Below are positions 5,922-7,562 of a stretch of DNA of 16,344 nucleotides, in pieces. Origin of the DNA: Breznakia sp. PF5-3 (GTDB lineage Bacteria > Bacillota_I > Bacilli_A > Erysipelotrichales > Erysipelotrichaceae); the NCBI RefSeq assembly GCF_029504745.1, contig NZ_JAQFIQ010000050.1, positions 1 to 16,344 on the forward strand, written 5' to 3'. The stretch's first letter is position 1; the number at the start of each line of letters is the position of its first letter. Both the position numbers and the translations under genes were made by a program. The notes below the pieces were generated by a model, which was not told the DNA's origin, made no database searches, and was given only the letters and a program-made list of their open reading frames with translations.

Positions 5922-7562
5922 ATGAAGAAAAGAATATTATCAAGTGACGAAGCAAGAGCCTCTCTTGTCAATGGAGTAAATCAGCTAGCAGATACAATCA
6001 AAGCTACCTTAGGACCAAAAGGTAGAAATGTTGTAATTGCAAATGAATATACAGGGCCATATATTACAAATGATGGTGCAACAATAGCTAGAGAATTTAT
6101 ATTAGAAGAACCATTTGAAAATGTTGGTGTCGATTTAGTAAAAGAAGTGGCATTGAAAACAAATGATTTAGCAGGCGATGGAACAACAACGGCGGTTTTG
6201 TTGGCACAAAAAATGATAAATGAGGGACTTAAGTATATTCGTGATGGATATAATCCGATGCTTTTGAAGAATAGTATTCAAAAAGCTGTAGATCTAGCAG
6301 TGAAGCATTTGTTTCAATCCACACAAAAAATAGTGATTCCATTACAGGTAAGGGATATTGCTACGATTTCTTCAGGTGAGCCAGCAATAGGTGAAATTAT
6401 TGCCGAAGCAATTGAGAAAATTGGTGATAATGCGCTTATTTCAATAGAGGAATCAAAATCAACAGCAACAAAATTGGAGATTGTTAAGGGATATAAAATG
6501 GATGAGGGATATGTTTCAGCATATATGACAAATGATCAAGTTAAAATGTGTGCAAATTTAAAAAATCCTTATGTTTTAATTACAGATGAAAAGATTACTG
6601 CTATTGAACAGATTTCTAATATCCTTGAGAAGTTGATTGAAATAAATGCTGATCTTGTTTTAATATCAGATACTATTCGTGAAGATGTTCTCTCTACTTT
6701 GATTTTAAATAAGGTTCAAGGAATTTTGAATGTTGTAGCAATTAAAGCGCCATCAACGCACGAACATCGGAAAGAAATATTAGAAGATATTGCAGTTGTT
6801 ACAGGAGGGAATGTGATTTGTAAGGAGTTAGGATATACCCTTGAAAACGTAGAGATTAATGATCTTGGAAGAGCAGGACAAATAAGTGTTGAAAAAGAAT
6901 CGACAATGATTATTGAAGGATTTTCAAATCAAGCATTATTTAATCAAAGGTATGAACAAATTCAAAATCTTATTCATGAATCTACTACAGAGTTTGAAAA
7001 AGAACGTTTGGAATTGCGATTGGCAAATCTTTCAGAATCGGCAGCGATTTTAAAGGTTGGTGCAATGAGCGAATTAGAGATGAAAGAGAAAAAAATGAAG
7101 ATTGAAGATGCACTTTGCGCTGTCAGAGTTGCGATGAAAGAAGGTATTTTACCAGGCGGAGGATTGGCGTATTTTAATACAGCAAAATATTTGGAATCAT
7201 TTTCTAAGGAAATGATAGAAGATACAGTTGGGTTTCGCATTGTAATTGATAGTTTAAAAGAACCAGTTAAGCAACTCTTAATGAATGCTGGAGTTGAAGA
7301 TGTGACAGAGCGATTAAAGAAACTTGAAACAGCGGATGCAGTAAGTGCATACGACATTCATTCTTTAACGTTAGTGGATATGTTTGAAGCTGGAATTATT
7401 GATCCTAGCACAGTAGAGCGAGTGGCGTTGCAATCCGCTTCTAGTATTGCTTCACTTATTTTAACAACCGAAAGTATCCTCGTGGATACTTCGATGGAAA
7501 GTATTATAAAAAAAGAATTGAATGATCAAGTAATTCAAGATAGCAATGCGGGATTATATTGA
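5922..7562 (+). CDS. Divergent GroEL/Cpn60-family chaperonin paralog (orphan, no adjacent groES)
   Basis: 546 aa, collinear with GroEL. Matching segments: [28 protein letters not shown] (ATP site), [36 protein letters not shown] and IIDPSTV. It ends ...QDSNAGLY rather than in a GGM repeat. AAGGAG RBS; only 23 nt separate it from the DUF4130 stop. Confidence 0.9.

Follow-up and report, generated by a model that had tools for sequence, protein, structure and literature searches.

The window analyzed here, the whole 16,344-nucleotide (nt) stretch of contig NZ_JAQFIQ010000050.1 (positions 1 to 16,344) of Breznakia sp. PF5-3, carries three consecutive genes that encode a radical SAM (rSAM) protein, its DUF4130 partner and a paralog of the chaperonin GroEL (a Cpn60 protein), with a divergent repressor gene ahead of them (Table 1). 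The rSAM and DUF4130 proteins both exceed the curated cut-offs of their families and their genes are adjacent, overlapping by 22 nt, which makes them a clear TIGR03916/TIGR03915 cassette; the rSAM gene product matches Radical_SAM, Fer4_12 and HHH_3 in Pfam. This pair is widespread and has been placed in DNA-damage regulons by comparative genomics (PMC3765255, PMC12392091), and a tight rSAM-DUF4130 complex acting on single-stranded nucleic acid has been predicted (bioRxiv 10.64898/2026.08.19.745780). Full-text literature searches returned no description of a chaperonin linked to the TIGR03916/TIGR03915 pair, and the clade of Cpn60s linked to it is unnamed in the literature searched. As judged from gene order and distribution, the association of this Cpn60 with the rSAM/DUF4130 pair is very strong, and it is reasonably likely that the protein serves as a dedicated, probably damage-induced chaperonin of this DNA modification-repair module.

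The Cpn60 paralog and the housekeeping GroEL

The Cpn60 gene is translated without interruption into 546 residues, with no internal stops, from an ATG that lies 23 nt beyond the DUF4130 stop codon (5896-5898). The Pfam model Cpn60_TCP1 (PF00118) spans the protein end to end (residues 22-522; 235.5 bits against a cut-off of 34.3, 1.5e-69), the NCBIfam GroEL subfamily model NF000592 scores 585.6 bits against a cut-off of 397, and the GroEL equivalog model TIGR02348 scores 568.0 bits, just below its trusted cut-off of 582.1. By these scores, the paralog is a GroEL homologue that is not certified as a TIGR02348 equivalog; it is 43% identical to the genome's own GroEL and 38% identical to Escherichia coli GroEL. 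In an alignment numbered according to E. coli (reference groL from NC_000913), the nucleotide-binding and catalytic residues are all identical to those of E. coli GroEL, namely T30-K34, D52, D87-T91 (GDGTTT), D398 (EDAL), G414-416 (PGGG) and D495. An AlphaFold2 monomer model takes the form of a complete three-domain GroEL (equatorial-intermediate-apical; predicted local distance difference test score 85.3, predicted template modelling score 0.71), and its best structure matches in the PDB are all GroEL or Hsp60 (E ~1e-50, template modelling scores 0.65-0.83). These features point to an ATP-hydrolysing group I chaperonin, which presumably assembles into rings. A built-in lid of the group II type was also considered and rejected, as the linked Cpn60s comprise 482-552 residues without an apical insertion.

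The substrate-binding groove of the apical domain is mostly GroEL-like in the branch to which the window belongs (Y199, S201, Y203, L237, L259, V263I and V264L), and the paralog carries the substitutions L234 to S, R197 to E, G375 to S and D253/E255 to T/R, the last of which removes two acidic residues of the cavity. The change of R197 to E breaks the inter-subunit R197-E386 salt bridge; this allosteric contact is lost clade-wide, position 197 being E or Y. The segment APGFGDRRK reads APSTHEHRK in the paralog, and a common C-terminal motif, KK-LND-L--S--G-[YF], stands in the close clade in place of the GGM repeats.

The genome (2.36 Mb, 97.9% complete) contains exactly two Cpn60 genes and one good Cpn10. 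The other Cpn60 gene, on contig C18, directly follows groES and has two controlling inverted repeat of chaperone expression (CIRCE) sites upstream, and hrcA is present with CIRCE sites of its own. No CIRCE was found in the window at up to 4 mismatches, and the paralog is accordingly regulated separately from the housekeeping groESL. Several statements of a preliminary description of this DNA, made from the sequence alone, are borne out by these results: that the protein is collinear with GroEL and keeps its nucleotide-binding signatures, that the replacement of GFGDRRK by STHEHRK and the 23-nt distance from the DUF4130 gene are real, that neither a CIRCE nor a groES gene precedes it (the DUF4130 gene is directly upstream, with no Cpn10 open reading frame between), and that a housekeeping groESL would be encoded elsewhere. 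It had also pointed to the lack of a GGM tail in the C-terminus, which ends in ...DSNAGLY. This is correct and yet a weak point, because the housekeeping GroEL, ending in ...AAMPGMY, is likewise without GGM repeats, so that their absence is not diagnostic of the paralog. All six sequence observations of the preliminary description hold.

Linkage and co-occurrence in related genomes

A protein search with the paralog retrieved about 30 relatives at 48-75% identity, ordinary GroELs starting at ~47%. All ten genomic contexts examined in this close clade show the order rSAM-DUF4130-(Cpn10)-Cpn60 within flanks that are otherwise unrelated, and the gene order of the window is this same linked-cassette arrangement. 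In one branch, at 48-54% identity, DUF4130 and Cpn60 are separated by a Cpn10 gene, stop and start codons overlapping, and the mobile loop of this Cpn10 keeps a hydrophobic tripeptide (...NGLII...). The preliminary description had proposed placing the protein in a Cpn60 phylogeny; in a tree of 100 rows, the linked Cpn60s of the close clade, the paralog among them, form one clade (support 100, stem 0.49) that falls outside the one made up of the GroELs of the host family itself (support 100) and sits beside Clostridia-type GroELs. The two nearest sister GroELs (P0050 and L074) have an ordinary groES-groEL arrangement.

A wider survey compared the window's rSAM with species-representative genomes and covered the 80 loci with the nearest rSAMs. 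Cpn60 stands directly after DUF4130 in 26 of the 80, which are those with the most similar rSAMs, and stop and start codons usually overlap; the record titles of linked loci include uncultured Bacilli, 'Mycoplasmatota', Clostridium sp. CAG:524, Firmicutes bacterium CAG:582, Holdemania and Coprobacillaceae. At least 36 loci, from several families, share the gene order. The 31 linked rSAMs group as a single clade of the rSAM tree (support 99) with 47 unlinked ones outside, so that one state change suffices, and in a Cpn60 tree that includes very diverged members (25-38% identical to the window's) all 38 linked proteins fall on one side of a branch. The rSAM-Cpn60 linkage thus appears, from the rSAM tree, to have arisen once, and the window's branch (Erysipelotrichales) represents the least-diverged linked form, coexisting with a CIRCE-controlled groESL.

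Several side observations were made among the surveyed loci. In a Holdemania metagenome-assembled genome (L009/L010 7902-9580), genes for a Macro-domain protein and DarT, which make up a DNA ADP-ribosyltransferase toxin-antitoxin pair, come directly after the cassette. Another GroES-less and very diverged Cpn60 paralog, 31-32% identical to the window's, is present on the minus strand at L077 4977-6587 and L078 4974-6557 (genomes G055 and G074, from two genera), directly 3' of a gene for a 513-residue protein with an N-terminal hydrophobic segment; both genomes also have a normal groESL, and this Cpn60 appears to be another operon-captured chaperonin. A candidate DUF4130-Cpn60 fusion (P0019, 774 residues) was rejected as a normal groES-linked GroEL whose C-terminal segment is partly duplicated; at L011 6001-8325, a 774-residue GroEL lies behind a normal groES and shows a partial internal duplication, its last ~230 residues being a second version of the GroEL C-terminal part.

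Within the genus, the four-gene module is also carried by the cultured Breznakia pachnodae DSM 16784 (S24 repressor 82%, rSAM 86%, DUF4130 68% and Cpn60 74% identical), which additionally has its own groESL. Searches for rSAM and Cpn60 in the congener G059 found neither, the congener G082 has a canonical Cpn60 only, the module was found in none of 80 sampled genera of the window's family, and its flanks differ between the two carrier species; the module is therefore accessory in the genus. The start of the contig (window 1-870) lies inside an IS256/Mutator-family transposase gene, so that the repair module stands in a region with mobile-element traces; a protein with a HAD_SAK_2 ('Swiss Army Knife RNA repair') domain follows the transposase at window 966-1457. 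This accessory distribution, the change of flanks and the transposase are what might be expected if the paralog were a housekeeping groEL that has moved, or a duplicate without function carried along by a mobile repair island. Such an origin is nevertheless very improbable: relocation is rejected by the second, CIRCE-controlled groES-groEL in the same genome, and loss of function is at odds with an intact reading frame under a low ratio of nonsynonymous to synonymous substitution rates (dN/dS; 0.036-0.09 in the window's branch) and with the conservation of gene order described above.

Co-occurrence was counted in an order-level sample of 201 genomes of small Bacilli, a class-level sample of 400 genomes, and a family sample of 41 genomes of 0.8-1.5 Mb, this being the family of one Cpn10-bearing genome. 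At the order level, 35 genomes have both rSAM and Cpn60, none has rSAM without Cpn60, one has Cpn60 without rSAM and 165 have neither. The class sample contains rSAM in 8 genomes, with Cpn60 adjacent in 8/8; the seven besides the window's are 94-99% complete. In the family sample, 10 genomes have rSAM and the same 10 an adjacent Cpn60, 30 have neither, and one further genome has an ordinary groES-groEL without rSAM. The linkage of orthologs to the rSAM pair, on which the preliminary description had made its idea of a client-dedicated chaperonin depend, is thus found throughout, in the 10 close contexts, the 26 further loci and the 35/35 rSAM-positive genomes of one order.

It is commonly held that GroEL/ES is a generalist and, outside Mollicutes, near-universal (PMC5810989, PMC9950496); reviews treat Mollicutes as the only bacteria without GroE. 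As a separate observation, a Cpn60 match at E <= 1e-50 was lacking in 35 of the 80 genera sampled from the window's family. The genomes concerned are mostly 90-100% complete, and they include the Breznakia congener G059 (97% complete). GroEL loss may therefore be common well outside the classical Mollicutes.

Purifying selection maintains all three genes of the cassette, and Cpn60 evolves fastest. By the Nei-Gojobori method, dN/dS over eight close pairs is 0.04-0.27 for Cpn60, 0.06-0.21 for DUF4130 and 0.03-0.07 for rSAM, and it is 0.036 between two Breznakia-type copies of Cpn60. Together with the modelled fold, this value marks the window's Cpn60 gene as more than a reading frame that arose by chance. 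The linked Cpn60 diverges much faster than housekeeping GroEL and most of all in the client-binding domain: apical identity is 47% in the close clade against 59-60% for the other domains, and 31% in the diverged group against 46% and 35%, whereas a comparison of the host GroEL with that of E. coli gives similar values for all three domains (51/56/51). Even at 25-30% identity, TLGPKG, ITNDG, GDGTTT and (E/D)DA are retained, and so for the most part are the GGG and D495 positions. On the complete 1.5-Mb chromosome of Clostridium sp. nC27_bin.11 (CP091739.1; L132 4501-7114), rSAM (383 residues), DUF4130 (114 residues) and Cpn60 (213 residues) are all truncated, and the three-gene unit appears to be decaying as a whole.

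These patterns bear on the suggestion that the protein is a general back-up chaperonin, induced by damage or stress, which serves many clients and merely shares a repair promoter. Its apical hydrophobic groove is largely intact in the window's branch, host GroES could in principle be borrowed, and in E. coli GroEL/ES is reported to assist UmuC in its SOS function (Donnelly and Walker 1989; Petit et al. 1994). If it were a general chaperonin, some lineages should have kept it alone, yet the linked Cpn60 is never found without rSAM in the 201-genome order, in which 165 genomes live without any Cpn60; its evolution is faster than that of housekeeping GroEL, with the client-binding domain in the lead, and in CP091739 it decays together with its partners. 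A back-up role is accordingly improbable. The fact that linked Cpn60 and rSAM are never apart, and that the former is often the sole chaperonin and without a co-chaperonin, fits a dedicated component and not a general chaperonin.

Control of the cassette

Table 1. Features of the rSAM/DUF4130/Cpn60 locus, in window coordinates
Feature	Position	Strand	Remarks
XRE-type helix-turn-helix (HTH) and peptidase S24 repressor	3116..3730	-	Pfam HTH_3 and Peptidase_S24; divergent from the operon
Predicted operon promoter, TTGTAA-16-TATAAT	3816-3843	+	best promoter match of the region, 10/12
TTACGTAA within the promoter spacer	3822-3829		sequence reading
Perfect 9-2-9 palindrome, AAAGTACGT-aa-ACGTACTTT	3854-3873		just 3' of the -10 element; sequence reading
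Radical SAM and HhH protein, TIGR03916, 'putative DNA modification/repair radical SAM'	3887..5155	+	646.7 bits against a cut-off of 343.5
DUF4130/TIGR03915 partner	5134..5898	+	243.5 bits against a cut-off of 112.25; Pfam DUF4130 2.3e-49
DUF4130-Cpn60 spacer, 23 nt	5899..5921	+	Shine-Dalgarno AAGGAG at 5909-5914, 7 nt before the ATG
rSAM/DUF4130-linked Cpn60 (GroEL paralog), 546 residues, without groES	5922..7562	+	
Predicted A+U-rich terminator hairpin, 15-bp stem, then U-run	7584..7630	+	RNA fold -13 kcal/mol, z = -4.1 against shuffles

The three genes are likely to form a single transcription unit that runs from the predicted promoter to the A+U-rich hairpin behind Cpn60. Independent transcription of Cpn60, which would have spoken against the reading of the preliminary description, finds no sign in the sequence: a consensus terminator scan of the plus strand from 3887 to 7562 gave no terminator-like site, and a promoter scan gave nothing above the chance level of 9/12 between Cpn60 and the upstream genes. 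The terminal hairpin itself was missed by the consensus scan because its stem has too few G-C pairs. A reading of the operon as an anti-phage defence system was rejected, since its three proteins match none of the PADLOC models; the repressor has weak hits to these models in its HTH region (best E 1e-5).

The repressor encoded divergently from the operon would be LexA-like and autocleavable without being a member of the LexA family. It scores 76.2 bits against the TIGR00498 lexA model (cut-off 110.95), with only its S24 half matching, and its N-terminus is an XRE-type HTH_3; the features of self-cleavage are present in the form of an Ala-Gly site (VKAGYD), GDSM (Ser) and ATIKK (Lys). An ortholog of 82% identity occupies the same position in B. 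pachnodae. The 2.36-Mb genome contains a single copy of the palindrome that closely follows the -10 element, and B. pachnodae keeps most of it in the form AAAGTACGTAAACGTAATTT.

Most linked cassettes instead have one or sometimes two copies of a (C)GAAC-N4-GTTT(G/A)C box located ~55 nt ahead of the rSAM start, and boxes of this type also precede lexA in four genomes that carry the cassette; in Firmicutes bacterium CAG:582, where the two were compared side by side, they are present at both lexA and rSAM. Such LexA-type boxes in relatives fit the published placement of rSAM/DUF4130 in DNA-damage regulons. Ordinary LexA control is rejected for the window's genome, in which searches found no canonical LexA and no GAAC-N4-GTTC box upstream of rSAM, and control therefore appears to be local. 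In Breznakia, the XRE/S24 repressor and the new palindrome appear to replace the LexA box and to give expression upon DNA damage, and the operon is probably damage-controlled in this organism.

Other arrangements were observed elsewhere. Two loci of the window's branch that are without an S24 neighbour (L007 and L067) have neither a LexA box nor a GTACG palindrome; TTGC-N6-GCAA-type palindromes, such as TTGCATTTACGCAA, surround their promoter ~180 nt upstream of rSAM, L007 has a divergent gene for an AraC/GyrI-like regulator, and these palindromes may constitute a third regulatory solution. At five unlinked rSAM loci of Clostridia (L161, L163, L165, L171 and L173), a same-strand S24-family gene lies directly upstream and ends 17-61 nt before the rSAM start, which would be another variant of LexA-like control of the pair.

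Co-chaperonin, proposed role and known systems

The distribution of Cpn10 bears most directly on what the linked Cpn60 does. Any Cpn10 is present in just 2 of the 41 genomes of the family sample, and among the rSAM- and Cpn60-bearing genomes of the 201-genome order in which Cpn10 was tested, it occurs only where it is encoded inside the cassette. No Cpn10 was found in four small-genome members of the class and one 2.1-Mb genome of another family, nor in three further genomes whose one Cpn60 is the linked one; in all, 13 genomes with a linked Cpn60, five of them 94-99% complete, were searched for Cpn10 and none was found. GroES-capped folding of the classical kind is therefore impossible in those 13 genomes. 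In the window's branch, the GroEL-like groove and the GroES of the host make borrowing of the latter possible.

With most members lacking a possible lid, the main rival to a dedicated chaperonin is that Cpn60, instead of being a foldase, belongs to the rSAM/DUF4130 machine as a mechanistic or structural subunit, its ATP-driven ring gating, shielding from oxygen, loading or recycling the enzyme, or remodelling protein-DNA complexes at lesions. The 13 genomes that have the linked protein as their only Cpn60, with no Cpn10 found, agree with this, as do the strong remodelling of the substrate- and GroES-binding apical residues in the diverged group with the ATPase kept, the clade-wide loss of the R197-E386 salt bridge, the conserved tail that replaces the GGM repeats, and the strict co-occurrence with rSAM that subunits would show. 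Conversely, the branch that keeps a translationally coupled Cpn10 with its hydrophobic mobile-loop tripeptide points to an ordinary chaperonin cycle at the origin, the apical groove residues of the window's branch are mostly GroEL-like, and most rSAM/DUF4130 pairs work without Cpn60. A subunit role is on balance unlikely, although it deserves serious consideration. Its strictest form, in which the linked Cpn60 is an obligatory ATP-driven subunit without any co-chaperonin, for instance a ring caging the Fe-S enzyme, protecting it from oxygen or loading it onto damaged single-stranded DNA, is a little more doubtful still; if true, it would be a new job for the GroEL fold and would explain why this protein is retained as the sole chaperonin in otherwise GroE-less bacteria.

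A dedicated chaperonin remains the preferred explanation, and the idea of the preliminary description that the paralog is client-dedicated is the best supported by the linkage, the separate groESL and the lack of a terminator within the operon; the folding role, the physical contact with rSAM/DUF4130 and the identity of the client are plausible extensions, and the non-folding role that the same description gave as an alternative may still apply. According to the mechanism proposed here, the XRE/S24 repressor probably holds the operon off by way of the 20-bp palindrome, which lies over the expected transcription start, and its self-cleavage after DNA damage would release the operon; in relatives, equivalent control would be exerted through ordinary LexA boxes. 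The chaperonin would then most likely bind, fold or hold the ~48-kDa partial-TIM-barrel Fe-S enzyme, DUF4130 or their complex, so that a burst of an aggregation-prone, oxygen-sensitive enzyme could become active without reliance on general GroEL/ES. As for its origin, a groES-groEL copy may have been captured behind rSAM/DUF4130, the Cpn10 gene being still present in one branch; loss of Cpn10 in most branches and narrowing of the client-binding apical domain would have followed, and the unit would have spread both to lineages without a GroE system and to lineages with one, as here.

Several points weigh against this explanation. Normal GroEL/ES is available in the window's genome, which makes the need for a private chaperonin less obvious than in GroE-less lineages. 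Where Cpn10 is absent there can be no classical encapsulation cycle, and 'folding' is perhaps the wrong word. Most TIGR03916/TIGR03915 pairs (Clostridia, Paenibacillus, Dialister, Geobacter) are without a linked Cpn60, so that the rSAM enzyme has no intrinsic need of one. The branch uniting all 38 linked Cpn60s has a support of only 37, with many long branches, for which reason the single origin was rested on the rSAM tree, and the genomes behind the co-occurrence counts are related, so that the counts do not represent independent events.

If the proposed role is correct, one enzyme system has taken over a GroEL lineage, which has lost GroES and has become the sole remaining chaperonin in whole groups of small-genome gut Bacilli; this would amount to a natural experiment on the limits of chaperonin specialisation and on whether the lid is dispensable. 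A private chaperonin also suggests that the rSAM enzyme is hard to fold or assemble, and chaperonin co-expression may be a practical route to active rSAM protein. The presence of the least-diverged cassette in the cultured B. pachnodae DSM 16784 makes the hypothesis testable at the bench.

Compared with GroEL/GroES of E. coli and Firmicutes, the paralog shares the three-domain fold, the ATP residues and, in the window's branch, most residues of the apical groove; it differs in lacking an adjacent groES, a CIRCE and a GGM tail and in scoring below the TIGR02348 cut-off. Unlike the HrcA/CIRCE-regulated groESL, it is grouped with DNA-repair genes beside an S24 repressor and its evolution is faster, above all in the apical domain. 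The rSAM and DUF4130 genes, which overlap, are clear members of the published TIGR03916/TIGR03915 ('SplB-like') cassette and lie behind a putative SOS-type control region. That cassette consists of two genes, sometimes with a UDG domain, and has no chaperonin, whereas here and in one rSAM clade Cpn60 is a fixed third gene.

Specialised GroEL paralogs with narrow client sets include Mycobacterium GroEL1, which acts with KasA/KasB, Myxococcus GroEL2, Bradyrhizobium groESL3, which is co-regulated with nif, and Chlamydia GroEL2/3. The linked Cpn60 resembles them as an additional copy whose regulation is distinct from that of the heat-shock copy and which is tied to a single pathway, although the paralog scores far below the cut-offs of the NCBIfam models for Chlamydia GroEL2/3. 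The specialised paralogs sit in genomes that keep GroEL/ES, whereas the linked Cpn60 also survives as the sole Cpn60 without Cpn10, and to our knowledge none of them is a constant member of its presumed client's operon throughout entire orders.

Phage chaperonins offer a further parallel. T4 gp31 is a co-chaperonin for the capsid protein gp23, and gp146 of Pseudomonas phage EL is a GroEL homologue that works without a co-chaperonin. The window cassette is chromosomal, cellular and probably SOS-type and not viral; it nevertheless resembles these 'bring-your-own' systems as a transferable gene set that carries its own chaperonin for a difficult client, with EL gp146 as a precedent for a chaperonin that dispenses with GroES.

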